Assembly (NCBI RefSeq): GCF_002723155.1
Contig: NZ_PBNO01000006.1
Source of the DNA: Ponticaulis sp.
Lineage (GTDB): Bacteria > Pseudomonadota > Alphaproteobacteria > Caulobacterales > Hyphomonadaceae
Length of the DNA stretch: 64,000 bases
Strand: one strand, 5' to 3'
Made by a program: the position numbers and the translations under genes. Below, piece by piece: positions 3,146 through 16,729 of this stretch. Position 1 is the first letter of the stretch, and each line of letters opens with the position of its first letter. The notes under the pieces were generated by a model. The model saw only the letters and a program-made list of their open reading frames with translations, had not been told where the DNA came from and did not search any database.

Positions 3146-5902
3146 ATGAGCCTATATACACAATACCTCGAAGAGATCGCAGCCCGTAAAAAGGATGGCC
3201 TTCACCCCAAGCCGATTGATGATGGCGCTCTGGTTGCTGAGCTGATCGAACAGATCAAAGACACAGACAATGCACATCGTGCGGACTCTCTGAATTTCTT
3301 TATCTACAACACGCTTCCAGGCACGACGAGCGCTGCCAGCGTGAAGGCTGCTTTCCTGAAGCAAATTGTTCTGGGCGAAGAGAGCGTCGCGGAGATCACA
3401 CCAGATTTCGCGCTCGAACTGCTGTCTCACATGAAGGGTGGCCCATCGGTTGACGTGCTGCTCGACCTCGCTCTTGGCGATGATGCAGCTGTCGCGGCTA
3501 AGGCTGCCGACGTTCTGAAAACTCAGGTCTTCCTCTACGACGCTGATATGGCCCGTCTCAAAGCTGCTTATGACGCAGGTAATGCTGTCGCGAAAGACAT
3601 TCTCGAAAGCTATGCTAAGGCGGAATTCTTCACGAAGCTTCCTGACGTGGAAGAAGAAATCAAAGTCGTCACGTATATCGCTGCAGAAGGCGATATCTCC
3701 ACCGACCTACTTTCACCGGGCAATCAGGCGCACTCACGCTCTGATCGCGAACTTCACGGTAAGTGCATGATCAGCCCTGAGGCACAGGAAGAAATTCAGG
3801 CGCTGCAAAAGCAACATCCTGATGCCCGTGTGATGCTGATCGCTGAAAAGGGTACGATGGGCGTGGGTTCGTCACGTATGTCTGGCGTCAACAACGTTGC
3901 GCTCTGGACCGGTAAACAAGCGAGCCCATACGTACCATTCGTCAACATCGCGCCGATCGTGGCTGGTACGAACGGTATTTCGCCGATCTTCCTTACGACG
4001 GTTGGTGTGACAGGCGGCATCGGCATTGACCTTAAAAACTGGGTCAAAAAGCTGGACGAGAACGGTAAGCCGGTTGTCGACGAAAATGGTGATGCGGTTC
4101 TGGAGCAGGCTTACTCTGTTGAAACCGGCAAAGTTCTGACCATCAACACGAAGACCCAGAAACTCTACGAAGGCGACAAAGAACTCGTAGACATCTCTTC
4201 AGCGCTGACAGCTCCAAAAATGGAATTCATTAAAGCGGGTGGTTCCTACGCGGTTGTCTTCGGTAAGAAGCTTCAAACATTTGCAGCTGAGACACTCGGT
4301 GTTGAGGCGCCATCTGTTTTCGCTGCATCAAAAGAAGTGTCGCACGAAGGTCAGGGCTTGACCGCGGTTGAGAAAATCTTCAACGCCAACGCAACGGGCA
4401 CAACTCCGGGCAAGACGCTCCACGCTGGTTCTGATGTCCGTGTGAAGGTGAATATTGTAGGTTCACAGGACACGACAGGTCTGATGACCTCGCAGGAACT
4501 TGAGGCGATGGCCGCCACTGTGATCTCTCCAATCGTTGATGGTGCTTACCAGTCTGGTTGTCACACAGCCTCTGTCTGGGACATTAAAGCTCAGACCAAC
4601 ATTCCAAAGCTCATGAGCTTCATGAATAAATTCGGCCTGATCACTGCGCGTGATCCGAAGGGCGAGTATCCGGCCATGACGGACGTGATCCACAAAGTTC
4701 TCAACGATATCACCGTTGATGACTGGGCGATCATTATTGGTGGCGATAGCCACACGCGCATGTCTAAAGGCGTCGCATTCGGTGCTGACTCCGGTACGGT
4801 AGCGCTTGCGCTGGCAACTGGCGAAGCGACGATGCCAATCCCTGAGTCCGTTAAAGTGACCTTCAAAGGTACAATGGCTGACTATATGGACTTCCGTGAT
4901 GTGGTTCACGCTACACAGGCTCAGATGCTGAAGAAGTTCGGCGAAAACGTCTTCCAGGGACGTATCATCGAAGTTCACATCGGCACGCTGCTCGCTGACC
5001 AGGCTTTCACATTCACCGACTGGACGGCAGAGATGAAGGCGAAAGCCTCTATCTGTATCTCAGAAGACGAAACACTGATCGAATCTCTGGAAATCGCGAA
5101 ATCCCGCATCCAGATCATGATCGATAAAGGCATGGACAACGAGAACCAGGTTCTTCAGGGCCTTATCGATAAAGCGGACAAGCGTATCGCTGAAATCCGT
5201 TCTGGCGAGAAGCCTGCTTTGAAGCCGGACGATAACGCGAAATACTTCGCTGAACTCGTTGTTGATCTTGATGCGATCAACGAACCAATGATCGCTGACC
5301 CGGACGTCAATAACGAAGACGTTTCCAAGCGCTACACGCACGACACGATCCGTCCGGTCTCTTACTATGGCGGCGACAAGAAGGTTGATCTCGGCTTCGT
5401 CGGGTCTTGTATGGTCCACAAAGGCGACATGAAGATCATTTCTGAAATGCTTCAGAACCTTGAGAAGCAAAATGGCGAAGTTAAGTTCGCGGCACCACTC
5501 GTTGTTGCGCCGCCGACTTACAATATCGTCGACGAGCTCAAAGCAGAAGGCGACTGGGACGTTCTGCGCAAATATGCAGGTTTCGAGTTTGATGACACTC
5601 ACCCGAAAGCTAAAGCGCGCACAGAGTATGAAAACATGCTCTACCTCGAGCGTCCGGGCTGTAACCTCTGCATGGGTAACCAGGAGAAGGCGGCTAAAGG
5701 CGACACAGTGATGGCGACGTCTACACGTCTCTTCCAGGGCCGTGTTGTAGAAGACGCCGACAACAAGAAGGGCGAGTCACTTCTAGCATCTACGCCGGTT
5801 GTTGTTCTGTCTACAATTCTCGGCCGTACGCCAAGCATGGATGAGTACAAAGCGGCTGTAGAGGGGATCAACCTCACGCAGTACGCGCCGCCGGTGAACT
5901 AA
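3146..5902 (+). CDS. acnB: Bifunctional aconitate hydratase 2 / 2-methylisocitrate dehydratase
   Basis: N-terminal HEAT-like region (LSHMKGG), STDLLSP, GVGSSRMS, SQDTTG, QSGCHT, GGDSHTRM, Fe-S ligands GSCM and CNLCMGNQ, STRLF. Confidence 0.95.
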   Translation: MSLYTQYLEEIAARKKDGLHPKPIDDGALVAELIEQIKDTDNAHRADSLNFFIYNTLPGTTSAASVKAAFLKQIVLGEESVAEITPDFALELLSHMKGGPSVDVLLDLALGDDAAVAAKAADVLKTQVFLYDADMARLKAAYDAGNAVAKDILESYAKAEFFTKLPDVEEEIKVVTYIAAEGDISTDLLSPGNQAHSRSDRELHGKCMISPEAQEEIQALQKQHPDARVMLIAEKGTMGVGSSRMSGVNNVALWTGKQASPYVPFVNIAPIVAGTNGISPIFLTTVGVTGGIGIDLKNWVKKLDENGKPVVDENGDAVLEQAYSVETGKVLTINTKTQKLYEGDKELVDISSALTAPKMEFIKAGGSYAVVFGKKLQTFAAETLGVEAPSVFAASKEVSHEGQGLTAVEKIFNANATGTTPGKTLHAGSDVRVKVNIVGSQDTTGLMTSQELEAMAATVISPIVDGAYQSGCHTASVWDIKAQTNIPKLMSFMNKFGLITARDPKGEYPAMTDVIHKVLNDITVDDWAIIIGGDSHTRMSKGVAFGADSGTVALALATGEATMPIPESVKVTFKGTMADYMDFRDVVHATQAQMLKKFGENVFQGRIIEVHIGTLLADQAFTFTDWTAEMKAKASICISEDETLIESLEIAKSRIQIMIDKGMDNENQVLQGLIDKADKRIAEIRSGEKPALKPDDNAKYFAELVVDLDAINEPMIADPDVNNEDVSKRYTHDTIRPVSYYGGDKKVDLGFVGSCMVHKGDMKIISEMLQNLEKQNGEVKFAAPLVVAPPTYNIVDELKAEGDWDVLRKYAGFEFDDTHPKAKARTEYENMLYLERPGCNLCMGNQEKAAKGDTVMATSTRLFQGRVVEDADNKKGESLLASTPVVVLSTILGRTPSMDEYKAAVEGINLTQYAPPVN

Positions 5903-5926
5903 GCCGGAGTAATCCGCAGAAATTGG

Positions 5927-5955
5927 AAAGGCGGGCTTATGCTCGCCTTTTTTTA
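5927..5955 (+). terminator. Intrinsic terminator between convergent acnB and soxA-like gene (probably bidirectional)
   Basis: AAAGGCGGGC-TTAT-GCTCGCCTTT followed by a T run. Confidence 0.8.
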
Positions 5956-6723
5956 TCTGCGAATACCGGGACTTTCCAGTTCAAGGCCAGATGCGCGAAC
6001 CGCAAGGTAGAACTCAAGATCAATATAGGTCTGAGAGCCGAGTTCCATGGGGGCAGCGCGAACGCCGGTATCACAGTCGTGGAGCCTGCGGTGCAACGAG
6101 CCGAAGTCTTCCCACTCAAAGCGGTAGGCCGGGAAACCATTGCCGTGCCCCTGACTGATCGTGTCCCCACGCAATTGTTTGCCCCAATTGTCATCATGGC
6201 ACTGTGTGCAAGCTAAGTTGAGTTGGCCGCGCCGTGTCATGAAATAATTCGCACCGCTTTCAAAGGCTGATTGAGTTTGCGGTGTGACCTCAACGCTAAT
6301 TGGCAGGCCTCGGGATTGCTCCGCAACAAATGCAGTCAGAGAGAGAAGTTCATCGCTTTCATAGGGCAAGGAGGTCAGGCCTTGATGCCGGGTTCGGCAC
6401 AGGTTGATCCGTCCCTCCAAGTTGATAAGCGTCTGCGTTCCAGTGTCAAAAGCTGGATAGTGCGTCGCAACACCTTCTAGTCCATTTTCGTGGCAGCCTG
6501 CACAGCTTGGTTCGCCTTGCTCAAAGAGGTCGGCCCCGCGTTCTACCCAGAGATATCCGGGGTTTTCAAAATCATCATTTTGCTGGGCTACAGTTTCAGG
6601 TGTTAGGAAATTCGAGCCGGAAACGCGCTGAGATGCTTCGATAGTAAAGTCCGGTTCCAGCTGCGTGGTCTCCGGAGAGCAGGCTGCACCGACAAACAGG
6701 AAACAGGCAGCGAGTAGCCGCAT
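5953..6723 (-). CDS. soxA: SoxA-like diheme c-type cytochrome, predicted lipoprotein
   Basis: Two CxxCH (CAGCH, CTQCH), INLCR heme ligand, RRGQLNLAC, QGHGNGFPAYR and RRLHDC active-site motif; lipobox-like GAAC in the signal peptide. Confidence 0.85.
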   Translation of the reverse strand: MRLLAACFLFVGAACSPETTQLEPDFTIEASQRVSGSNFLTPETVAQQNDDFENPGYLWVERGADLFEQGEPSCAGCHENGLEGVATHYPAFDTGTQTLINLEGRINLCRTRHQGLTSLPYESDELLSLTAFVAEQSRGLPISVEVTPQTQSAFESGANYFMTRRGQLNLACTQCHDDNWGKQLRGDTISQGHGNGFPAYRFEWEDFGSLHRRLHDCDTGVRAAPMELGSQTYIDLEFYLAVRASGLELESPGIRR

Positions 6724-7043
6724 TAGCTTACCTCGATTTGCGCGCTGTCAGACCAGCTTTGTCCATCCTGATCCGTCCAGACGAACTCGAAACTGCCGGA
6801 CTCGTTTGCGCGCGCATAGAATTTCAGTATCGGGTTTGCTGCCACGCCTGGATGAAAGTCCGATGAGAAAAAAAGCGTACCATTATAGAAACACTCAAAT
6901 TTGGTGATGATGTCCTGCGGGATCATTTCGCCGCGTGAACCAAAGCGGAAGCCGCTTTCCATCTCGTGCTGGATCATGGCGCGCAGTTCGATGATTTCAC
7001 CGCGGTCAGCAGTCTGCGGGACTGAAAGTCGTATCGTTGTCAT
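6723..7043 (-). CDS. soxZ: SoxZ-like carrier subunit
   Basis: IQHEMESGFR, GVAANP, FVWTD motifs; no signal peptide. Start ATG 7043 with GAGG RBS; TAATG overlap with soxA. Confidence 0.85.
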   Translation of the reverse strand: MTTIRLSVPQTADRGEIIELRAMIQHEMESGFRFGSRGEMIPQDIITKFECFYNGTLFFSSDFHPGVAANPILKFYARANESGSFEFVWTDQDGQSWSDSAQIEVS

Positions 7044-7050
7044 AGCTGCC

Positions 7051-7515
7051 TCAATCAATCACACAGGCGGCGAGGGTGACCAGAGTTTGTTTCGCGCCAG
7101 ACCAGAGTGTTCCATCATTCATTTCGGCTATAACGCGAATTGACTGCGTGCCGCCGAGCCGTATGCGCGCCGAAACATCAGCGCGTCCTGACATCGGAGT
7201 CAGATGATACTGTGCAAGAACGGGCAGCGGGTTTCGCGGAGAGAGAACCACAATCTGTTTCACGTAGTCGTCTTCTGTCATCGGGCTGTCGACCGAGATA
7301 TCAATGGGTACGGAGAAACCGTTTTCAGCTATGGGCGGCAGATCGACGTTAACACGACCTTCAGTGATCACCCGGTCTCCGAACATCCCTCTGATGGCTT
7401 CATTCATCTCGTCTTCGGTGGCCGCGGCAACTCGTGGAATCATGAGCATGCTCACACTGACTGCACCTAGTCGTAGCATGGTCCTTCGAGATAATAGAGT
7501 CGTATGCGTTGTCAT
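7051..7515 (-). CDS. soxY: SoxY paralogue with non-canonical C-terminal arm (VTLAACVID)
   Basis: Tat signal SRRTML; PPIAENGFSVP, NPLP, RIRLGGTQ SoxY-fold motifs; ends VTLAACVID instead of VTIGGCGG. Confidence 0.8.
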   Translation of the reverse strand: MTTHTTLLSRRTMLRLGAVSVSMLMIPRVAAATEDEMNEAIRGMFGDRVITEGRVNVDLPPIAENGFSVPIDISVDSPMTEDDYVKQIVVLSPRNPLPVLAQYHLTPMSGRADVSARIRLGGTQSIRVIAEMNDGTLWSGAKQTLVTLAACVID

Positions 7516-7970
7516 CAGTCCTGTGTCCGGCTGGTGAGATACGCGACCAGATGTTCAATCTGTTCGGCGCTGAGAATGGTCTGGTCCTGAAATTCTTCCT
7601 GCACCTGATTTAGGTCGTGAAGGCGATAATAGGAGGGCATGACTGTATCCGGTATCAGGCTTTGTAGGTCTACGATTCTGAACCTGATCTGAGCAGCAGA
7701 AAGCCTGTCGCCAACAGTGGAGAGGTCCGGCCCGACATTTCCTTGAAACTCTGCATCTAAACCGTCGATCTGATGACAGAGTACGCAGTGCCCCTGATCT
7801 CGGTCGACGAATACAGTTTTGCCCACTTCAACAGAAGATGCCGTGTTCGAGAGCGGTGCGGCGATTGTATCGCCAACTATCATATCTGGGGTGACGAGTT
7901 GTTCCGCGAATGCTTCAGGGCAACAAAAGAGAAGCGTTACAAGGCTGGAAAGGGCACAGGCTCTGATCAA
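7515..7970 (-). CDS. soxX: SoxX-like monoheme cytochrome c
   Basis: GHCVLCH, GNVGPDL, TVMPSY; Sec-type signal; overlaps fccB (TTGA) and soxY (TGATG). Confidence 0.85.
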   Translation of the reverse strand: MIRACALSSLVTLLFCCPEAFAEQLVTPDMIVGDTIAAPLSNTASSVEVGKTVFVDRDQGHCVLCHQIDGLDAEFQGNVGPDLSTVGDRLSAAQIRFRIVDLQSLIPDTVMPSYYRLHDLNQVQEEFQDQTILSAEQIEHLVAYLTSRTQD

Positions 7971-9250
7971 CCGAACGCCTCACTTGTAATGGTTCTGAAC
8001 CAGTCTTCTGCCTGAAGCGCCTCTGCCTCGCGAATGCTAGCGTCTGCAGCCAACGGCGATATGCCACCAGCGCCATCAACTGAGCTGAATGCGCCGTCAT
8101 CATTTCGGTAGACGCCTGCAATTGAAACGGCTCTGTCTGACGTGATGAACGAATAACAGGTGTTTGCGAGCGTCGTCGGTAGCGCATCGTTTCCGCTGAG
8201 AAGCCGCGCGATGGATGCTGCGCACACCTTTGCCTGCAGGTTCGCTGAGAACGCTGATTTCGGCATGGGGTTCGCAATGGTGGCGTCACCAATGACGTGA
8301 ATATTTGGCTGGCGTGTAGATTCGAAGCTGGTTGCGTTGATTGGGCACCATCCCGTTGCATCTGCTACGCCGGCTCGTTCCGCAATATCGCCTGCCTTTT
8401 GAGGCGGGATCACATTTGCCACGTCGGCGCGGATTTCATCAAAATCAGTGTAGAGTGTTTTGGTATCAGCTGCGACGCGGTTCACGCGTCCGTCATTTGA
8501 TGCACCGCGCCATTCCAGATGATCTGGATAATGTTCTGCCCAAGCCTCCTGAAAGAGTGGCATTTTCGAGAACGTGTCCTTTGAGTCCAGAATGATCAGC
8601 TTGGACGCTGGTTTCTCGGTCTTGAGGTAATTTGCGATCAGGCTTGCCCGCTCATATGGGCCCGGAGGGCATCTGAACGGAGCTGCCGGTGCGGACATGA
8701 CGACAGTGCCGCCATTTTCCATCGCTTCGAGTTGGCGTCTGAGCAGAACCGTCTGCGCTCCTGCCTTCCAGGCGTGAGGCATAAGCTCCGCAGCGGCCCG
8801 GTCGTAACCCTCCAGCGCGTCCCAACGAATAGATATGCCCGGAGACATGATGAGGCGGTCATAGCGCAGAACAGAGCCGTTATCTAAAGTGACTGTCCGT
8901 GCCTGACTGTCGACATCCGTCGCGAGTGCTTGCGCGATCTCAATGCTGTCGCCGACAAGGCCACGATAACCAAACTCCTGATCGGCAATTGACCGTTGCC
9001 CGCCAATGACGAGATTGCTGAAGGGGCAGGCCGTGAATATCGGGTTGGGTTCGACGAGCGTTACATGCGCGTTTGGCAGATAGGACTTTATGAACCGAGC
9101 AGCTGTTGCGCCTCCAAAGCCACCGCCGATCACAACGACTTTCGCGCGTGTCTGGGCGAAGGCTTTTAAATCCGAGGCGCTGATTAGTGTTACGCTGGCG
9201 ATGGCGGCCAGTAATTTGCGTCTCGAAAGCAAATTTGTATCGAGCGCCAT
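7967..9250 (-). CDS. fccB: Flavocytochrome c sulfide dehydrogenase flavoprotein subunit (FccB/SoxF-like)
   Basis: Tat signal SRRKLL; VVVIGGGFGG FAD motif; CPFSN; RCPPGPYERA and NTCYS redox cysteines; MPKSAFSAN. Confidence 0.88.
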   Translation of the reverse strand: MALDTNLLSRRKLLAAIASVTLISASDLKAFAQTRAKVVVIGGGFGGATAARFIKSYLPNAHVTLVEPNPIFTACPFSNLVIGGQRSIADQEFGYRGLVGDSIEIAQALATDVDSQARTVTLDNGSVLRYDRLIMSPGISIRWDALEGYDRAAAELMPHAWKAGAQTVLLRRQLEAMENGGTVVMSAPAAPFRCPPGPYERASLIANYLKTEKPASKLIILDSKDTFSKMPLFQEAWAEHYPDHLEWRGASNDGRVNRVAADTKTLYTDFDEIRADVANVIPPQKAGDIAERAGVADATGWCPINATSFESTRQPNIHVIGDATIANPMPKSAFSANLQAKVCAASIARLLSGNDALPTTLANTCYSFITSDRAVSIAGVYRNDDGAFSSVDGAGGISPLAADASIREAEALQAEDWFRTITSEAFG

Positions 9251-9254
9251 ATCG

Positions 9255-9593
9255 TCAGGCCTGTTCTGCGAAATAGTCCGCTAATGCCGTGAGCTGTTCG
9301 TCTGTGTAACCGCGAGCAATACGGTGCATCACCGTAGTCCCGGTATCGGGCTGACCATAGACACGAAGCGAGGCGAGTAATTGATCGGCACTGCGACCGG
9401 CAAGAGACGGAATGCTCTGACCGGCTGTGTCTGCATGACAGCCGGTGCATGAAAGTGCTGAAACGGCAAGACCGTTCGGGTAATTGCGCTCGGAGGCAGG
9501 CCTTGTGTCGACCTCGGCATCAACGCTGAGGGTGCTGCAACCGGATTGGAAGAGCGCCCCAGCGATGATGAGAAATGAAATCGGGCGAAGCAA
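9255..9593 (-). CDS. Small monoheme c-type cytochrome, predicted lipoprotein (FccA-like)
   Basis: CTGCH, IPSLAG, TVMHRIARGY (Met ligand); lipobox-like FQSGC. Confidence 0.85.
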   Translation of the reverse strand: MLRPISFLIIAGALFQSGCSTLSVDAEVDTRPASERNYPNGLAVSALSCTGCHADTAGQSIPSLAGRSADQLLASLRVYGQPDTGTTVMHRIARGYTDEQLTALADYFAEQA

Positions 9594-9594
9594 A

Positions 9595-11781
9595 TCAGGC
9601 CTCGCGCAGATTACGATAGTTCAGCGGAAGTTCGCGCACGCGATTGCCCGTAGCCGCGTAGATCGCATTCAGAACGGCCGGTGCTGCCACGGCAATTGTA
9701 GGCTCACCTACGCCGCCCCAGAAGCCGCCCGATGGCATGACGATAGTTTCGACTTCAGGCATCTCTGAAAGGCGCATCACATTGTATGTGTCGAAGTTTG
9801 TTTCCTGCACTTCGCCATCTACAAAATTCACATTGCCATAGAGCATTGCGGACAGGCCATAAACGAAGGAGCCTTCGACCTGAGCTTCGATCTGCTGCGG
9901 ATTTACTGCATGACCCGGATCAGTTGCAGCAACAATGCGGTCGATCTTCAGCTGGCCATTATCGTCGACTGTGACCTCGGCGCATGCAGCTGTGTAGGAG
10001 CCGAACGAATAGAAGGCACACAGGCCGCGGTGTTTGCCATCATCAGAGCCCCAGCCGGATCTGTCTGCTACGGCTTGCAAAACCGCTGCGGATTTCGGGC
10101 TGTCCTGAAGGTGAGCGAGGCGGAATTCCAGCGGATCACGACCAGCCGCCACAGCCAGCTCGTCCATCAGGCACTCCAGATAGATCGCGTTCTGGTTGGC
10201 GTTTACCCCGCGCCAGAAGCCCGGTCGCACTGGCGGGGTTCGCATAGCGTGTTCGATGCGGAAGTTCGGGAAAGTGTATTTCAGGCTCTGGTCTGCTGTG
10301 CGCGGGTTATCCGGCGACGCGAGGCCCTGGAAGGTCGCAATGTCGATGCCTCCGACAATAGCCTGAGGCATGATGCCTGCGAGGATGGACTGTCCGGAAA
10401 TACGGATATTCACACCAGTCAGATTGCCGTCTTCATCCAGCGCGCCGCGTACACGTGCTTTGGTCGTTGGGTGATAGAATCCCTGACGCTGGTCTTCCTC
10501 ACGGCTCCATTGAAGCTTGATCGGTGTGCCTGGCATCTCTTTCGCGATGAGAACGGCTTGCGCGACGTAGTCTGACATACCTCGGCGACCGAAACCGCCC
10601 CCAAGCAGCTGCTTGTAAACTTCACACTGCGCAATCGGAAGACCGGACGCCTGAGATGCCGCGGCGAGAGCGGCTTCACCGTTCTGTGTCGGACACCAGA
10701 CTTCGCAGCTCTCATCGGTGTAGAGAGCCGTTGCGTTCATTGGTTCCATCGGCGCATGGCTCTGGAACGGCAGATTATAGGTTGCTTCTACAATCTGAGC
10801 TGCATTTGCGAATGCGGTATCCACATCGCCGCCCTGATTGCCAATACCTGCTTCTTCGGCAGTGAGGCCTTCATCTAGTTCAGCTTCAAAGTCAGCAGAG
10901 TTGAAACGGTCGCCACCTGCCCATTCGACGGGGAGTGCTTCGACGGCTTTGTTGGCGCGCCACCATGTGTCCGCGATAACGGCGACAGCGTTATCACCAA
11001 CCTGCATGACTTTGACGACGCCGGGCATGCCTTCAACTGCGGACGCATCAAAGCTTGCGACCGTCGCATTGCGCACAGGTGCTGCTTTAATTGATGCCAG
11101 GAGCATGCCGTCCAACACGATGTCGGCGCCGTATTGTTGGGCGCCGGTGACTTTATCGGCGGTGTCGAGACGTGCAACCGGCTGGCCAACGATCGTCCAT
11201 GTGGATGGATCTTTGAGTGTAATGTCGGAAGGTGCATCCAGCTGGGAAGCAGCTTCTGCAACGGCACCGAAGGGCAGCTCATTGCCAGATGGACCATGAG
11301 TGATCACGCCTTTGCTGACTGTGCATTCGCCTACTTGAACGCCCCATTCATTCGCTGCGGCCTGAACCATCATCATGCGTGCAGCGGCGGCACCTTCGCG
11401 AACATATTGATGTGACGATCGAATACCCTGACTGCCGCCGGTGGAAAAGTCACGCCAGACACGGTTACGGGCCAGGTTCTCACCCGGTGTCGGATATTCT
11501 GTGACGACCTTATCCCAGTCGGCTTCGAGTTCTTCGGCAACAAGTTGCGCAAGGCCGGTAAGTGTACCCTGTCCCATTTCGGAGCGGGCGATCCTAATGG
11601 TAACGACGTCATCGCGGCCGATATGGACCCAGGCGTTCACTTCAGGGTTTGGAGGAAGGTCCGCAGCTGCAGGTGTGTTGTCGTCAGCGCCCGCACAACC
11701 AGCGAGGAATGAAATCGTCAGGCCAGCAGCGCCAGAGCTGATCAGAAATCCGCGACGGGAAAGCGAAATTGAATTGGTCAT
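9595..11781 (-). CDS. Xanthine-oxidase-family molybdopterin subunit (IorB / aldehyde oxidoreductase type), Tat lipoprotein
   Basis: SRRGFL Tat motif plus LAGC lipobox; SEMGQG, STGGS, APMEPMN, GGGFGRR, WRGV, GGVGEP. Start ATG 11781 with GGAGG RBS. Confidence 0.9.
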   Translation of the reverse strand: MTNSISLSRRGFLISSGAAGLTISFLAGCAGADDNTPAAADLPPNPEVNAWVHIGRDDVVTIRIARSEMGQGTLTGLAQLVAEELEADWDKVVTEYPTPGENLARNRVWRDFSTGGSQGIRSSHQYVREGAAAARMMMVQAAANEWGVQVGECTVSKGVITHGPSGNELPFGAVAEAASQLDAPSDITLKDPSTWTIVGQPVARLDTADKVTGAQQYGADIVLDGMLLASIKAAPVRNATVASFDASAVEGMPGVVKVMQVGDNAVAVIADTWWRANKAVEALPVEWAGGDRFNSADFEAELDEGLTAEEAGIGNQGGDVDTAFANAAQIVEATYNLPFQSHAPMEPMNATALYTDESCEVWCPTQNGEAALAAASQASGLPIAQCEVYKQLLGGGFGRRGMSDYVAQAVLIAKEMPGTPIKLQWSREEDQRQGFYHPTTKARVRGALDEDGNLTGVNIRISGQSILAGIMPQAIVGGIDIATFQGLASPDNPRTADQSLKYTFPNFRIEHAMRTPPVRPGFWRGVNANQNAIYLECLMDELAVAAGRDPLEFRLAHLQDSPKSAAVLQAVADRSGWGSDDGKHRGLCAFYSFGSYTAACAEVTVDDNGQLKIDRIVAATDPGHAVNPQQIEAQVEGSFVYGLSAMLYGNVNFVDGEVQETNFDTYNVMRLSEMPEVETIVMPSGGFWGGVGEPTIAVAAPAVLNAIYAATGNRVRELPLNYRNLREA

Positions 11782-11795
11782 CTCAATGCCTCCCA

Positions 11796-12248
11796 TTACA
11801 TCTTGGTTTTCGCGAGTTGCACGCCGCGGCGCACGCGCTGGAAGGTGCCACAGCGGCAGATATTGGTGATCTCTGTGTCTGTGTCTTCGTCTGTCGCTTC
11901 CGGATTGTTATTCAACATGCCGGCAACCGCCATGATCATGCCCGGTTGGCAGTATCCGCATTGAGGGACATCAAGCTCTTTCCAGGCTTCCTGAACCGGA
12001 TGGCTTCCGTCCTCGGAGAGGCCTTCAATTGTGGTGATCTGCTCTTCTGCACCGATCGCTGACGCCGGATAAACGCAAGAGCGAACGGCCATGCCATCGA
12101 TATGAACAGTGCATGCGCCGCAAGCCGCAACGCCGCAGCCATACTTTGTGCCCGTGAGGCCCAGTTGTTCGCGCAGTACCCAAAGCAGAGGTGTGTCGTC
12201 GTCAAATTCGACATCAACCACCTGACCGTTCACGTGCAGTCTTGCCAT
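11796..12248 (-). CDS. 2x[2Fe-2S] small subunit (IorA-like)
   Basis: GTKYGCGVAACGACTV...RSC and QCGYCQPG...NICRCGT. Confidence 0.93.
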   Translation of the reverse strand: MARLHVNGQVVDVEFDDDTPLLWVLREQLGLTGTKYGCGVAACGACTVHIDGMAVRSCVYPASAIGAEEQITTIEGLSEDGSHPVQEAWKELDVPQCGYCQPGMIMAVAGMLNNNPEATDEDTDTEITNICRCGTFQRVRRGVQLAKTKM

Positions 12249-12425
12249 TCCGATAGCCCTTCTTGTTTTGTCGAAGGTCCGATAGTTCGAAAGATGTAGT
12301 TGAAACCAATCTTTCGGCCTTGAACGCTTCGTCTCCCCTTAGCGATACGCTCTGTTTCACTTCAGGATAGTTTAATTTATCCAACCTGCCTACAGTTCAA
12401 TGTGAACTCGTTTAGAAGCCAGTCT

Positions 12426-12457
12426 AACAAAAATGTGAGCGGCATCGAATGAGCCGC
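12426..12457 (-). terminator. Possible terminator after moaC
   Basis: Bulged stem GCGGC(A)TC-GAAT-GAGCCGC followed on the minus strand by TCACATTTTTGT. Confidence 0.45.
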
Positions 12458-12458
12458 C

Positions 12459-12938
12459 TCAAGTCTTGTAGAAGTCGCCTGATTTGCCGCCCGTTTTTGA
12501 AACCAGTTCGACACCTGTGATAACCATGCCTTTGTCTACGGCTTTGAGCATATCGTAAATAGTCAGGCAGGCGACCGAAACGGCTGTCAAAGCCTCCATT
12601 TCTACACCGGTTTTCCCCGTTGTTTTCGCAGTTGCTCGCACAGCGAGACTATTCGGGCGATCGGCCTCGCTGATCTCGACAGTGACACCAGTGAGCGGCA
12701 GCGGGTGACAGAGCGGGATCAGGTTAGAGGTCTCCTTTGCTCCCATGATCCCTGCGAGCTCCGATATCGCAAGCGGGTCACCTTTTTTTGTAGAACGCTG
12801 CAAGGCAAGCGCGAGCGTTTCCGGTTTCATTTCGACATAGCCGATGGCAACGGCGACGCGCTCGGTATCTGCCTTGGCGCTCACGTCTACCATCCGCGCG
12901 CGACCATCTGGGCCGATATGTGTCAGATCGTTAGGCAT
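12459..12938 (-). CDS. moaC: Cyclic pyranopterin monophosphate synthase accessory protein
   Basis: LTHI...MVDVS, LIPLCHP, GKTGVEMEALT, YDMLKAVDK, KTGGKSG. Confidence 0.97.
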   Translation of the reverse strand: MPNDLTHIGPDGRARMVDVSAKADTERVAVAIGYVEMKPETLALALQRSTKKGDPLAISELAGIMGAKETSNLIPLCHPLPLTGVTVEISEADRPNSLAVRATAKTTGKTGVEMEALTAVSVACLTIYDMLKAVDKGMVITGVELVSKTGGKSGDFYKT

Positions 12939-13468
12939 CAGAACTCCGTCAGGCGCGGCATAAGTTCGACCATGTTACACGGGCGATAGCGGCTATCGAG
13001 CTGGTACTTCAGGATTTGGTCCCAGCCATCTTTGACGGCACCGGTCGAGCCCGGAAGGCAGAAAACAAATGTGCTACCTGCAAGGCCAGCTACGGCACGT
13101 GATTGCAAGGTCGACAAACCCACTGTCTGATAACTGACCTGATGAAAAACCGCTGAGAAGCCATCAATGACTTTATCAAAGAGTGGCGTAAGAGCTTCGA
13201 CTGTGACGTCGCGACCGGTCAGGCCTGTGCCGCCACTGGAGATGACCGCGTCCACCTCAGGATCAGCGATCCAGTTTTGAACGGCCTGTCGAACCAGCTG
13301 ACGGTCATCTATGACAATTTTACGGTCCGCCAGAATATGACCGGCTTCGGTCAGTCGGTCTGCGAGTGTCTGGCCCGAAGTATCGGTTTCCATGGTGCGG
13401 GTATCACTGACTACCAGAACGGCAATGCGCACAGGTTTGAAGCTCAATGATTCATCTATTCCGGCCAT
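12938..13468 (-). CDS. moaB: Molybdenum cofactor biosynthesis protein B (MogA/MoaB family)
   Basis: VSDTR, DTSG, SSGGTGLTGRDVT, FCLPGSTGAV, QLDSRYRPCN. Confidence 0.92.
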   Translation of the reverse strand: MAGIDESLSFKPVRIAVLVVSDTRTMETDTSGQTLADRLTEAGHILADRKIVIDDRQLVRQAVQNWIADPEVDAVISSGGTGLTGRDVTVEALTPLFDKVIDGFSAVFHQVSYQTVGLSTLQSRAVAGLAGSTFVFCLPGSTGAVKDGWDQILKYQLDSRYRPCNMVELMPRLTEF

Positions 13469-13945
13469 TCAATTGGTCTCCGATTGCTGCCAGCGCTGGT
13501 TATCCTGATAGTCTTGTTCGCGCGGTTCAATCCAGAAGTCACCTGCTTCCGTAATCTCTTTTTTCCAGAAAACGGCTTCGGTTTTCAAATAATCCATCAG
13601 AAAGTCAGCGGCTTCAAAAGCCGCTCTGCGGTGTTTGGATGCCGTCGCAACAAAAACGATGGTTTCACCTGTCCGGATTTCTCCCGTTCTGTGATGAACA
13701 GCCAGCGCCTCTAGTGGCCAGCGGTTGAGAGCTTGCCCTACGGCTGTTTCGATCCCGTTCTCGGTCATGGGAGAATAGGATTGAAGAAATAGCCCCAACA
13801 CGCGGCTATCCTTGCCATCGGGTCGAACGACGCCAGAGAAACTCACAACGCCACCGGATGATGTCAGCCTGGATTCGAAATCTTTCAGAAGCTCGGGCGT
13901 AGAAATTGCTTGGTCTGAAATGTTGACGTGAACGCTCATGCTCAT
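13469..13945 (-). CDS. moaE: Molybdopterin synthase large subunit
   Basis: GGVVSFSGVVR, HRTG, HRRAAFEA, MDYLKTEAVFWKKE. Confidence 0.95.
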   Translation of the reverse strand: MSMSVHVNISDQAISTPELLKDFESRLTSSGGVVSFSGVVRPDGKDSRVLGLFLQSYSPMTENGIETAVGQALNRWPLEALAVHHRTGEIRTGETIVFVATASKHRRAAFEAADFLMDYLKTEAVFWKKEITEAGDFWIEPREQDYQDNQRWQQSETN

Positions 13946-14190
13946 CCGCCACCAACGGGAGGCATGAATGCAATTTCGTTCGGATTGGCCAGAGGATGTG
14001 CGTCATCGACAATTTCGCCATTTACGGCGATGCGGACAGTCGGCTCCAGGAACACACCTTCTGCCTCGAAACGGGCTTCAGCCCATGTTCTGAGATCGCG
14101 TGCATGTGAAACGTCCGATGGCAGTTCAATGTTCTCTGACGGTTTTCCGGTAACGTCGCTGAGGCGACCGAAATAGAGAATATCAGTCAT
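13942..14190 (-). CDS. moaD: Molybdopterin synthase sulfur carrier
   Basis: ILYFG, IAVN, C-terminal EIAFMPPVGGG. Confidence 0.95.
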   Translation of the reverse strand: MTDILYFGRLSDVTGKPSENIELPSDVSHARDLRTWAEARFEAEGVFLEPTVRIAVNGEIVDDAHPLANPNEIAFMPPVGGG

Positions 14191-14193
14191 TGG

Positions 14194-15225
14194 TTATCCT
14201 CCGGTGGTCGACATATGGCGAGATACGCCAGACGTCTGACCGTTCGCACCGATTTCAAATTCATGCTTCTCCGGCTTTTTCCCGATTGCGCGGTCGAGTG
14301 CAGTATGAAGCGCTGCTTTCGGGTTTTCGGTATCACGCACTGCGGCTTTTAGATCGATGCAATCATCTTGTCCGAGGCACATATAAATTCGCCCTGTGCA
14401 GGTGACTCGAACGCGGTTACATCCAGCGCAGAAATTGTTGGTCAGCGGCGTGATAAAGCCGAGTTTGCCGCCGGTCTCAGCAATGCGAACGTAACGGGAT
14501 GGCCCCGCATTCGTTGGAGAGTATGGCAGGTCTTCTAGCGTCCAACGCTCTTCGAGATTTCCGCGGACTTCGGGTAGGGGAATGTACTGATCGAAGCGAT
14601 CTTCCCCGGTCTCTCCGAGTGGCATGACTTCAATGAGCGTCATGTCGAAGCCCTCTCCATGGGCCCACTGTACCATGGACGGAATTTCATCCAGATTGTC
14701 ATGCTTCAGCGCGACGGTGTTGAGCTTCACTTGAAGTCCTGCACGTTGCGCTGCCTCTAAGCCTTTTAGAACGGGCGTGAGCTTGCCGCGCCTCGTGATC
14801 TTGAGAAATCGATCTTCATTTAGAGTATCAAGAGAGACGTTCACGCGCCGGACACCTGCAGCGTAGAGCTCTTCGGCATATTGCGCGAGAAGTGTGCCAT
14901 TCGTCGTAAGAGTCAGCTCATCAAAGCCGCGACCCAGCCGGTCGCCAAGCGCGAAGAACAACTTCATGATATCCCGGCGCACGAGAGGCTCGCCGCCAGT
15001 GATACGGATTTTGGACACGCCTCGATCAATGAAGGCTTTGGCAACCATCTCTGTTTCTTCGAGAGACAGCAGGTCTTTCTTCGGCAGAAATGTCATGTTC
15101 TCCGCCATGCAATAAGTGCACCGCAGATCGCATCGATCAGTGACCGACAGGCGCAAATACGTAATCTCCCGCCCGAACGGATCGATAAGTGAATTCGTCT
15201 TTGGCTGTTTCAGACCGTCAGCCAT
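14194..15225 (-). CDS. moaA: GTP 3',8-cyclase
   Basis: YLRLSVTDRCDLRCTYC, TGGEPL, CAGCNRVR..C, C-terminal GG. Confidence 0.97.
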   Translation of the reverse strand: MADGLKQPKTNSLIDPFGREITYLRLSVTDRCDLRCTYCMAENMTFLPKKDLLSLEETEMVAKAFIDRGVSKIRITGGEPLVRRDIMKLFFALGDRLGRGFDELTLTTNGTLLAQYAEELYAAGVRRVNVSLDTLNEDRFLKITRRGKLTPVLKGLEAAQRAGLQVKLNTVALKHDNLDEIPSMVQWAHGEGFDMTLIEVMPLGETGEDRFDQYIPLPEVRGNLEERWTLEDLPYSPTNAGPSRYVRIAETGGKLGFITPLTNNFCAGCNRVRVTCTGRIYMCLGQDDCIDLKAAVRDTENPKAALHTALDRAIGKKPEKHEFEIGANGQTSGVSRHMSTTGG

Positions 15226-16729
15226 GTAGAACTTCCCTCATGGCTTCCAGATCGGAAACCGTGTCGATATCGATAGCATGCTCGGGTCGCAGGGGGACTG
15301 TCACAGTATTCGACAATGATTTGAATATTTTGCGTGCGCCTTGGTCACCCTCGGCAGCGAGAATTTCACTAAGGCTTGCTCGCGCGAAAAGTGCGGGCGG
15401 TGTCGGTTTACCTTCAAATTCACTCATTACGGCAGTAACGCCCGGTTTGAGCGCCGCATAAAGGGCTTCAATATGTTCGTCCGGTACGAAAGGCATATCT
15501 GCAAGAAGGACGAGCACTGATTGGATATCAGAGTTTGCCTGAGTCACCTGAATGCCAAGCCTTAAAGAAGAAGACAGGCCGTGCTCAGGGGCGGGATTTT
15601 CCACGACAGACCAGTGATAGGCTTTGAGTGTTGCTTGTCGTTGGTGCTGTTGTCTGCCTGTAATGGCGATACGTGAGCGAAAGCGCTTTTCTCCGGCTTT
15701 GGACGCTACAGTAGCCAATACTGATTGACCGCGCAGGTCTGCGAGAAGTTTGTCGCCAGCTTCGAAACGAGATGATTGGCCTGCTGCGAGGAGCACGACG
15801 GCAGATTCTGCGTAAATGTTGTGGGTGTGCGTCTGAAACGCAGCAATTATTTCCGCTAACGTTGAAACAGCGATTGAGGATGACTCTCGAAGAGATGGAA
15901 CGAGTCCTATGGGCCCATGTACTCTAGCGACCTCATGCTGGGGCACGCCAGACAAACTGAGTTCCTGGCACCTGATTGCGTGCGTACGTGGGCTGCCGAC
16001 TGCGCCGATATAGAACGATGGATACTCAAGCGCTTGCTGCAATAATGCCGTTTCCCAATGGCGGTCATGGAACATCAATGCGAAAGCTGTCCATGGGTCA
16101 TCTGAAACGAGCGGAAGCGTTTCGGGCGTTTTCAGTAGCTCTAGTTTCGAAACACCTATCTGATCTGCAACAGCGTAATCATTTGTGTCTGGCAGCTGCA
16201 GATGAACCTCAAGGCCGCTTGCTGTCGCCAGACGTGCAAGGTCCAGACAGTCAGCGCCACGTCCTGCAATGCGAAGGCGTAGTTTAGGATTATAATCGAA
16301 TTTTATAGTCTCGCTGCCAACGGTGAATTCGAGCGAACCGACAGACCGTGCTCGGAGCGTTGAGAGCGTGGTGCGCAACTTCGATGGGTCATATATCGGT
16401 TCGATATAGACATGTATTGTGCCGCCGCATGGTAGGGGCAGGTCTATGAAACGAGAGCCCTGACCATAGTGCAAAGCCATCGGAGAGTTCTCTTCGAGCG
16501 AGCGCTGCGCCTGGAGTACAATATCGCTATCGATGCAGCCACCTGAGAGATAACCGGCTGAGAGGCCGTCCGCTGTGATGGCCATGAGCGAACCAAGCGC
16601 TCTGACGCCGCCACCGACGGTTTCGGTAATCACCGCAATGGCGACGCGTTTTCCGGACTTATGCCAGTCCAGAAGTCGCGCGATTACATCCTGCGCGTGC
16701 GCCTCATATGTCGATTGAACGCTCGTCAT
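15218..16729 (-). CDS. XdhC/CoxF-family Moco chaperone fused to MocA-type nucleotidyltransferase
   Basis: N-terminal part GYLSGGCID, LPCGG, YIGAVGS, GPIG (XdhC). C-terminal part VVLLAAGQSSRF...DKLL, LADMPFV, DIDT (NTP_transf_3). One uninterrupted 503-aa frame. Confidence 0.85.
   Translation of the reverse strand: MTSVQSTYEAHAQDVIARLLDWHKSGKRVAIAVITETVGGGVRALGSLMAITADGLSAGYLSGGCIDSDIVLQAQRSLEENSPMALHYGQGSRFIDLPLPCGGTIHVYIEPIYDPSKLRTTLSTLRARSVGSLEFTVGSETIKFDYNPKLRLRIAGRGADCLDLARLATASGLEVHLQLPDTNDYAVADQIGVSKLELLKTPETLPLVSDDPWTAFALMFHDRHWETALLQQALEYPSFYIGAVGSPRTHAIRCQELSLSGVPQHEVARVHGPIGLVPSLRESSSIAVSTLAEIIAAFQTHTHNIYAESAVVLLAAGQSSRFEAGDKLLADLRGQSVLATVASKAGEKRFRSRIAITGRQQHQRQATLKAYHWSVVENPAPEHGLSSSLRLGIQVTQANSDIQSVLVLLADMPFVPDEHIEALYAALKPGVTAVMSEFEGKPTPPALFARASLSEILAAEGDQGARKIFKSLSNTVTVPLRPEHAIDIDTVSDLEAMREVLHG

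Follow-up and report, generated by a model that had tools for sequence, protein, structure and literature searches.

The window analysed here, a 64 000-nucleotide (nt) stretch of contig NZ_PBNO01000006.1 from a Ponticaulis sp. genome, carries at 5953-12248 eight intact minus-strand open reading frames (ORFs), in which the genes of a xanthine-oxidase-family molybdoenzyme (IorAB) stand together with sox genes and with those of a flavocytochrome c (FccAB). Its SoxY ends in a variant arm with an Ala-Ala-Cys core (AAC arm), and we propose that AAC-arm SoxYZ is very probably the dedicated carrier protein of IorAB. This partnership is argued for by the near-constant adjacency of the genes, the grouping of the linked IorB proteins in a single clade, a sister lineage with a similar linkage, minimal loci reduced to iorAB-soxYZ and a residue signature of the clade. 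The best explanation of the eight genes together is a self-contained, membrane-tethered periplasmic module which would work without SoxB or SoxCD. To judge from its distribution, the module is common in marine and soil bacteria without the normal thiosulfate-oxidising enzymes.

The association of iorAB with AAC-arm soxYZ

The proteins of the window were mapped onto 80 loci encoding SoxY relatives from species-representative genomes, and adjacency was counted in those 65 whose sequence extends 4.8 kb or more upstream of soxY. IorB adjoins soxY on the same strand in 64 of the 65, with an identical eight-gene order in 57; the sole locus without iorAB is also the only one whose SoxY ends in GGCGG. 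The alphaproteobacterial loci are from Hyphomonadaceae, Parvibaculaceae, Maricaulaceae, Geminicoccaceae, Mesorhizobium, Microvirga, Enterovirga, Filomicrobium and Xanthobacteraceae, the gammaproteobacterial ones from Halioglobus, Spongiibacteraceae and Azotimanducaceae, and the betaproteobacterial ones from Burkholderiales. An earlier sequence-only reading of the window had proposed that Sox carrier and coupling genes are coupled here to a xanthine-oxidase-family enzyme, and this coupling is found to extend over three proteobacterial classes. The closest locus is that of Ponticaulis koreensis DSM 19734, with eight proteins 85-97% identical to those of the window. In Methylobacterium and Neorhizobium the module is plasmid-borne and the carrier goes by the NCBI name 'SoxY-related AACIE arm protein'. 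More broadly, over 560 species genomes contain matches to the window's SoxY, and the AAC-arm SoxY family comprises at least 7,986 protein clusters (90% identity) at E ≤ 1e-30. On this distribution the genes of the module are inherited as one unit across bacterial classes.

The flavocytochrome c sulfide dehydrogenase (FCSD) flavoprotein, SoxA, SoxX and SoxZ are encoded in ~90% of loci, and the departures from the common arrangement are few. The minimal form, iorAB-soxYZ alone, was found in L073, L076 and the metagenomic L088, and an iorAB-soxXYZA form without fccAB in L077 and L080. FccA and fccB are jointly lost in L073, L076, L077 and L080, while L064 has fccB without a detected fccA; in L056, iorAB has moved behind soxA.

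In a maximum-likelihood tree of IorB, the SoxYZ-linked sequences fall into one clade (support 100/99). Most eight-gene forms make up one large subclade, and the minimal and fccAB-less forms stand at or near the base of the clade, although the fork joining several of them to the eight-gene forms lacks resolution. As far as the branching is resolved, IorAB and the carrier therefore seem to have been partners before SoxAX and FccAB were recruited; the position of the minimal forms suggests that the carrier itself is the partner of IorAB, with SoxAX and FccAB as loaders. Two members nested in the clade are without the SoxYZ link, one adjoining a solute-binding protein and the other a cytochrome b. 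The sister lineage of the clade is likewise linked to SoxY, SoxZ and SoxA. The next outgroup (locus L089) encodes a small subunit, a large subunit, a multihaem cytochrome c, XdhC and MocA; this classical layout is that of three-subunit aldehyde dehydrogenases such as 8GY3 of Gluconobacter. In the window, iorA and iorB form a two-subunit set, and the operon has neither a flavin adenine dinucleotide (FAD) subunit nor a multihaem cytochrome c as third subunit. By gene order, SoxYZ is thus encoded where the relatives of IorB have their cytochrome subunit.

The solved structure closest to IorB is the large subunit of the Gluconobacter membrane aldehyde dehydrogenase (8gy3_C; E 2.6e-80, full length). 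The glutamate of the IorB GVGEP motif, which we take to be the catalytic residue of the family, aligns with matching glutamates in 8gy3_C and PaoC, and this residue (E698) is invariant in 55 sequences. The SoxYZ-linked clade is set apart by G439 and H442, which replace an Asp/Arg pair present in 15 and 16 of the 16 outgroup sequences, respectively, and in 8gy3_C; the clade also has several arginines and tryptophans of its own.

Some loci differ from this picture in ways worth recording. On the Neorhizobium galegae plasmid pNgVX (L093:2710-4885), iorB is apparently frameshifted, since it gives a two-frame match and is absent from the gene table; the other seven genes are intact. A module of the sister clade (L092:3347-9463) has iorAB flanked by divergent soxY-soxZ, a SoxA-like protein and a cytochrome c, and molybdenum-cofactor genes. 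This locus also holds an FGE-sulfatase-family protein, and the cysteine of its SoxY (…TRGACIDD…) is followed by a 23-residue tail and is therefore not C-terminal. Matches to the window's SoxY were also obtained on 32 Sinorhizobium plasmid records; the one examined (Sinorhizobium meliloti pSymA, L094:6938-9382) has a cluster of soxY (arm …ATNGCL), soxZ, a cytochrome c gene and fccB, and neither iorAB nor soxAX lies within 7 kb. With this arm and without iorAB, the cluster was rejected as an instance of the module and is a different system. Its gene content shows a SoxYZ-type carrier paired with FccAB alone. A match on a Methylosinus trichosporium OB3b plasmid was rejected as well, being a canonical soxZ-soxB pair beside an IS6 element.

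Products, boundaries and transcription of the operon

The gene order iorA-iorB-fccA-fccB-soxX-soxY-soxZ-soxA was obtained from the ORF list and from Pfam and NCBIfam matches (Table 1). The sequence-only reading was correct in the position and family of every one of these genes. It had put their spacing at overlapping or under about 15 bp, and the coordinates give a still tighter packing, with overlaps of 1, 4, 1, 8 and 1 nt and gaps of 1 and 4 nt, as is typical of translational coupling. In one of the 1-nt overlaps, the stop codon of iorA overlaps the start of iorB.

Table 1. Positions of the module genes and of the features around them in the window
Feature	Position	Strand	Basis
iorA, 150 aa, two [2Fe-2S] clusters, no signal peptide	11796..12248	-	Pfam Fer2 + Fer2_2
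iorB, 733 aa, xanthine-oxidase-family molybdopterin large subunit	9595..11796	-	Pfam MoCoBD_1/2
fccA, small monohaem cytochrome c (CTGCH), partner of FccB	9255..9593	-	weak Pfam Cytochrome_CBB3
fccB, FCSD flavoprotein, SoxF-like, twin-arginine signal	7967..9250	-	Pfam
soxX, monohaem cytochrome c (CVLCH)	7515..7970	-	TIGR04485, 78.8 bits (cut-off 61)
soxY paralogue, twin-arginine signal	7051..7515	-	PF13501; TIGR04487 and TIGR04488 scores
Codons of the variant arm VTLAACVID and stop codon	7051..7080	-	translation
soxZ, partner of SoxY, no signal peptide	6723..7058	-	PF08770; TIGR04490, 82.6 bits (cut-off 76)
soxA, dihaem cytochrome c (CAGCH, CTQCH)	5953..6723	-	TIGR04484, 213.9 bits (cut-off 110)
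Hairpin terminator, common to the operon and convergent acnB	5925..5952	.	fold calculation
Upstream intergenic region: weak moaC terminator (12426-12461), then ~175 nt of leader/promoter	12249..12461	-	
Molybdenum-cofactor cassette: xdhC::mocA fusion, moaA, (moaD), moaE, moaB, moaC	12459..16729	-	NCBIfam

SoxA, SoxX and SoxZ each score above the cut-off of the NCBIfam model for the 'true' Sox protein, and SoxA carries the usual downstream cysteine (HDCDTG). SoxY stays below its own: it reaches 106.6 bits on TIGR04488, the model of true GGCGG SoxY (cut-off 125), and 160.1 bits on TIGR04487, that of the AACIE-arm paralogue, which is the best-scoring model although its cut-off of 172 is not attained either. 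This comparison of the two models had been proposed in the sequence-only reading, which referred to an 'AACIE arm' paralogue family; TIGR04487 is such a family, and the name is in use at NCBI for the carriers in relatives' eight-gene clusters. The C-terminus of the window's protein reads ...TLVTLAACVID, with the carrier cysteine inside the arm, and T-V-T-L-A-A-C is invariant across 19 aligned SoxY relatives. An Ala-Ala-Cys arm is present in most of the 80 surveyed loci. Its end varies: VID in the window, VVL or VIG in most marine relatives, and true AACIE arms in Mesorhizobium. For FccB, matches were obtained to FCSD_central (PF21706, 1.2e-47) and FCSD-flav_bind (PF09242, 1.3e-21), with the gene of the CTGCH cytochrome directly upstream.

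All eight products are predicted to be exported, either by a signal of their own or by riding with a partner. Besides FccB and SoxY, IorB has a twin-arginine signal (SRRGFL), followed in its case by a canonical LAGC lipobox; of the two proteins without signal peptide, IorA presumably leaves the cytoplasm as a complex with IorB. Lipobox-like signals are frequent among relatives in IorB, FccA, SoxX and SoxA, and the module is therefore probably tethered to the membrane.

The bounding terminators proposed by the sequence-only reading were confirmed in part. The hairpin at 5925-5952 is strong on the plus strand (-18.3 kcal/mol, z -4.3, followed by a T-run), where it is primarily the terminator of acnB, but weaker on the minus strand (-12.7 kcal/mol, z -3.1, poor T-run); it may be bidirectional. 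At the other end, the hairpin and T-run at 12436-12461 are weak (-12.1 kcal/mol, z -1.55) and are crossed by one RNA-library contig. Neither hairpin was picked up by a terminator consensus scan, and a scan for sigma-70 consensus promoters around the operon found none. Upstream of iorA there are two inverted repeats, GTTCAcatTGAAC at 12395-12407 and GGATA-n8-TATCC at 12365-12382. In an alignment with three relatives both are kept in the two closest and partly in the more distant one, and they are candidate regulator sites.

Contigs covering the cluster were found in four metatranscriptome runs (marine, biofilm), at a depth far below that of the adjoining acnB and declining from iorAB through fccAB to soxXYZA. 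They bridge the iorA/iorB, iorB/fccA and fccB/soxX junctions, although contigs cannot prove a single transcript, and one spans moaC into iorA. Transcription from one promoter ahead of iorA would agree with this coverage, but the evidence is weak, as DNA carry-over and chimeric contigs may be involved. In each of the four runs the convergent acnB (3146-5902) has far greater coverage than the eight genes.

Independence from canonical Sox and possible chemistry

The assembly of the Ponticaulis genome is 100% complete, so that the absence of canonical Sox genes, claimed in the sequence-only reading for the window, could be followed genome-wide. No match to the SoxB model TIGR04486 was found at E ≤ 0.001, including none of the 5'-nucleotidase family, and the SoxY of the window is the only one in the genome. 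SoxC is also absent: the single PF00174 protein is a 315-aa MsrP with MsrQ adjoining (SoxD was not searched separately). With no SoxB, no SoxC and no other SoxY, canonical thiosulfate oxidation is excluded for this organism. This absence and the co-occurrence of iorAB with AAC-arm soxY bear out the sequence-only reading on both of the points that it had named as able to refute it. The same trend was seen in other genomes. Of 35 module genomes, 30 lack SoxB, and in a sample of 151 genomes of the family, 63 have AAC-arm SoxY, always in single copy and patchily distributed by genus, and none of the 63 has SoxB. Among the five module genomes that do have SoxB, the four tested all have SoxC. Therefore, the module neither depends on nor complements canonical Sox, and we rejected the idea that IorAB substitutes for SoxCD inside an otherwise canonical pathway.

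The reading that we put first concerns sulfane sulfur. FccAB and/or SoxAX would charge the SoxY cysteine oxidatively, with sulfide or a related sulfur anion as the source, to give a persulfide. Such a persulfide, expected wherever the SoxY cysteine is used together with SoxAX or an FCSD, has to be removed from the carrier. We propose IorAB for this task, which falls to the molybdoenzyme SoxCD in canonical Sox. IorAB would add water-derived oxygen to the bound sulfane sulfur in two-electron steps, and the electrons would travel by way of the two [2Fe-2S] clusters of the enzyme and c-type cytochromes to the respiratory chain. The oxidised sulfur would leave as sulfite without a hydrolase or SoxB, either because an S-sulfinate loses SO2 or because incoming sulfide displaces sulfite from an S-sulfonate, with the persulfide re-formed. 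The displacement route would explain how iorAB-soxYZ alone can be a complete unit. IorAB would then be a non-homologous counterpart of the sulfane dehydrogenase SoxCD, and heterotrophs would gain energy from sulfide.

We regard oxidation of sulfane sulfur by IorAB on the SoxY cysteine as possible, with somewhat less than an even chance of being right. Sulfur is preferred to carbon as the site of attack because of the FCSD flavoprotein and the equivalog-level SoxA, SoxX and SoxZ, a TauE/SafE permease near some of the modules (see below) and the SoxYZ-FccAB pair of S. meliloti. A number of points weigh on the other side. To our knowledge, no xanthine-oxidase-family enzyme oxidises sulfur, and the characterised members all act on carbon; in IorB itself, the glutamate and the motifs in general agree with those of an ordinary aldehyde or heterocycle hydroxylase. 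As the SoxB-bearing module genomes also have SoxC, there is no simple SoxCD gap to be filled, and the module would be partly redundant there. The release step without SoxB is one that we infer on chemical grounds. No sulfite dehydrogenase of the sulfite-oxidase family (SorA/SoxC-type) was found in the Ponticaulis genome, SoeABC-type enzymes not having been searched for; three other molybdopterin oxidoreductases are present. The second sox cluster of Starkeya novella, which resembles the module, was almost silent on glucose, methanol and thiosulfate, sulfide not being among the conditions (PMC3797975). The predicted complex of IorB (34-733), IorA and SoxY (33-154) scored 0.01 against a mark of 0.34, a result that we weigh neither way.

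The chemistry suggested in the sequence-only reading is centred on carbon. SoxAX would join an organic thiol or thio-acid (e.g. methanethiol or another low-molecular-weight thiol) to the SoxY cysteine in a mixed disulfide, IorAB would hydroxylate the carbon adjoining the sulfur and free an aldehyde or acid, and FccAB would handle the leftover sulfide or persulfide. IorB indeed carries the motifs of a carbon hydroxylase and has an aldehyde dehydrogenase as its nearest solved relative, the AAC arm is bulkier and more hydrophobic than GGCGG, and the coexistence of the module with complete Sox systems in some genomes suggests another substrate, as does the lack of induction of the S. novella cluster by thiosulfate (PMC3797975). 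However, SoxA and SoxX score as ordinary equivalogs, and genes for thiol metabolism, transporters or regulators are not conserved near the module except among close relatives. The minimal iorAB-soxYZ forms are without SoxAX, and tethering there would have to be independent of it. We also know of no xanthine-oxidase-family enzyme that hydroxylates saturated carbon adjoining sulfur. On balance this route seems unlikely.

Alternatively, IorAB may be an ordinary periplasmic aldehyde or heterocycle dehydrogenase for which SoxYZ has a maintenance role: a persulfide provided by FccAB and SoxAX would restore the labile Mo=S ligand outside the cytoplasm, an arrangement resembling that of the SoxYZ-like carrier, rhodanese and SoxH-like proteins found with pyrroloquinoline quinone (PQQ) alcohol dehydrogenases. 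The sulfido ligand of the xanthine-oxidase family is normally installed in the cytoplasm by XdhC, and an xdhC gene lies upstream of the module. SoxYZ-like carriers do accompany other periplasmic dehydrogenases outside Sox (TIGR04557 match; ped cluster review, PMC12997753). But six genes are a heavy investment for repair, and cytochrome-c-linked IorAB enzymes, aldehyde dehydrogenases and the periplasmic PaoABC do without any such system. Moreover, a new substrate would account better for the separate IorB clade and its altered conserved residues. We consider a maintenance role quite improbable.

Ordinary thiosulfate oxidation, in which SoxXAYZ would feed SoxB and SoxCD encoded elsewhere with iorAB as a mere neighbour, would agree with the 'true' Sox scores of SoxA, SoxX and SoxZ, but it has hardly any probability left, being refuted here by the gene content of the complete genome (unless SoxB lies in unassembled sequence) and opposed by the absence of SoxB from all AAC-positive genomes of the family sample, by the failure of SoxY on the GGCGG model and by an iorAB adjacency kept across classes. 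Chance juxtaposition of iorAB and sox genes is no more credible than that. The remaining probability goes to an explanation not yet conceived.

Neighbouring genes, significance and comparison with known systems

Directly upstream of the module lies the molybdenum-cofactor cassette, headed by a 503-aa XdhC::MocA fusion. Its content fits an enzyme that would need the sulfurated cytidine-dinucleotide form of the cofactor, but it cannot be assigned to IorB alone, since the genome encodes other molybdoenzymes. In 42 of the 80 loci, all 42 of Hyphomonadaceae type, the module has molybdenum-cofactor genes on one side or the other within 10 kb. Clustering of all ORFs of the 80 loci revealed no neighbours conserved across taxa beyond the eight genes: a small ModE-like helix-turn-helix protein, a TauE permease and the molybdenum-cofactor genes are near the module in Hyphomonadaceae-type loci only. 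The TauE/SafE permease, a member of the sulfite-exporter family, is absent from the window but occurs near the module in nine Hyphomonas-type loci (L010 at 4339-5103, L015, L017, L020, L032, L037, L040, L056 and L059); in seven of them it lies between moeA and the first module gene, in the other two elsewhere in the locus. It hints that a sulfur oxyanion may cross the membrane.

A second iorAB pair is encoded at a distance in the Ponticaulis genome (G000:C2:816787-820482, L083), followed by a 106-aa ORF without a Pfam match. In five related loci (L024, L033, L039, L044 and L058), a second pair stands directly beside the module; of these copies only that of L039 groups with L083 in the tree, the others forming long separate branches.

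AAC-arm SoxY genes are routinely annotated as 'thiosulfate oxidation', so that in metagenomic surveys the organisms may pass for partial Sox oxidisers or be ignored. One survey of Sox evolution (2026), for example, listed more than 1,200 soxY and soxZ copies outside recognised clusters. Should sulfide or another sulfur compound prove to be the substrate of the module, a widespread lithoheterotrophy is being missed in Hyphomonadaceae, Halieaceae, rhizobia and methylotrophs, and the xanthine-oxidase family would gain a new type of substrate. The full proposition, that a hydroxylase of this family oxygenates protein-bound sulfane sulfur and so provides an energy-conserving route from sulfide to sulfite independent of SoxB, SoxCD and oxygen, is doubtful as it stands. 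If true, it would be the first sulfur-directed chemistry in the family and would concern thousands of marine and soil heterotrophs now scored as having 'incomplete sox genes'. If the module does something else, the SoxYZ 'swinging arm' would be a general periplasmic carrier device. Cultured strains with the module only, among them P. koreensis DSM 19734, Hyphomonas polymorpha and Henriciella species, make the function directly testable.

The closest published counterpart is the 'second sox gene cluster' of S. novella (Kappler et al. 2013, PMC3797975), Snov_1975-1982, which comprises soxX2Y2Z2A2F2 and a xanthine-oxidase-family enzyme (Snov_1975/1976) and has neither SoxB nor SoxCD. Compared by description only, its published gene content is the same as that of the window and the locus-tag numbering fits the order; S. 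novella has a complete Sox system besides, whereas the Ponticaulis genome has none. Its authors considered that the cluster may matter under other conditions and gave no function (PMC3797975). Elsewhere, a second soxY of Bradyrhizobium was dispensable for thiosulfate oxidation (PMC5748708), and a paper on SAR324 describes a flavocytochrome flanked by SoxYZ as well as isoquinoline oxidoreductase genes in SAR324 drafts, the two not being linked. In the literature searched, no functional study was found of AACIE, of SoxYZ with isoquinoline oxidoreductase or the xanthine-oxidase family, or of iorA/iorB with sox.

Among carriers, the members named after TIGR04487 share the A-A-C core of the arm and stand in the same eight-gene cluster (Methylobacterium plasmid, Neorhizobium, Xanthobacteraceae); the SoxY of the window differs in its score below the cut-off and in the arm end, VID instead of IE. 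Among enzymes, Gluconobacter AldFGH (PDB 8GY3) and the IorAB-cytochrome c enzymes have the same small [2Fe-2S] and large Mo subunits in the same domain order, a twin-arginine signal, no FAD subunit and the aligned glutamate, at an identity of ~30% (estimated by eye). They have a multihaem cytochrome c subunit, in contrast to the SoxYZ with its loaders and the G439/H442 pair of the module. Two systems offer a precedent for a dedicated SoxYZ beside one periplasmic oxidoreductase: the soxCD-soxY2Z2 clusters of Campylobacterota, where the partner is the sulfite-oxidase-family SoxCD, and the SoxYZ-like carriers of TIGR04557, where the partners are PQQ alcohol dehydrogenases.

With canonical Sox of the Paracoccus type, the module shares a periplasmic location, a C-terminal cysteine on SoxYZ, equivalog SoxAX, a SoxEF-like flavocytochrome, a molybdenum enzyme encoded beside the carrier and the passage of electrons to cytochrome c. 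Canonical Sox has SoxB and SoxCD, a GGCGG arm and a molybdenum enzyme of the sulfite-oxidase family, whereas the module has a VTLAAC(V/I)x arm, a xanthine-oxidase-family enzyme and several predicted lipoproteins. The cluster type is already on record (S. novella 2013; NCBIfam TIGR04487), and the novelty lies, as the sequence-only reading had supposed, in the function and not in the gene families: the Ponticaulis locus is a new member of this type and a variant of Sox.

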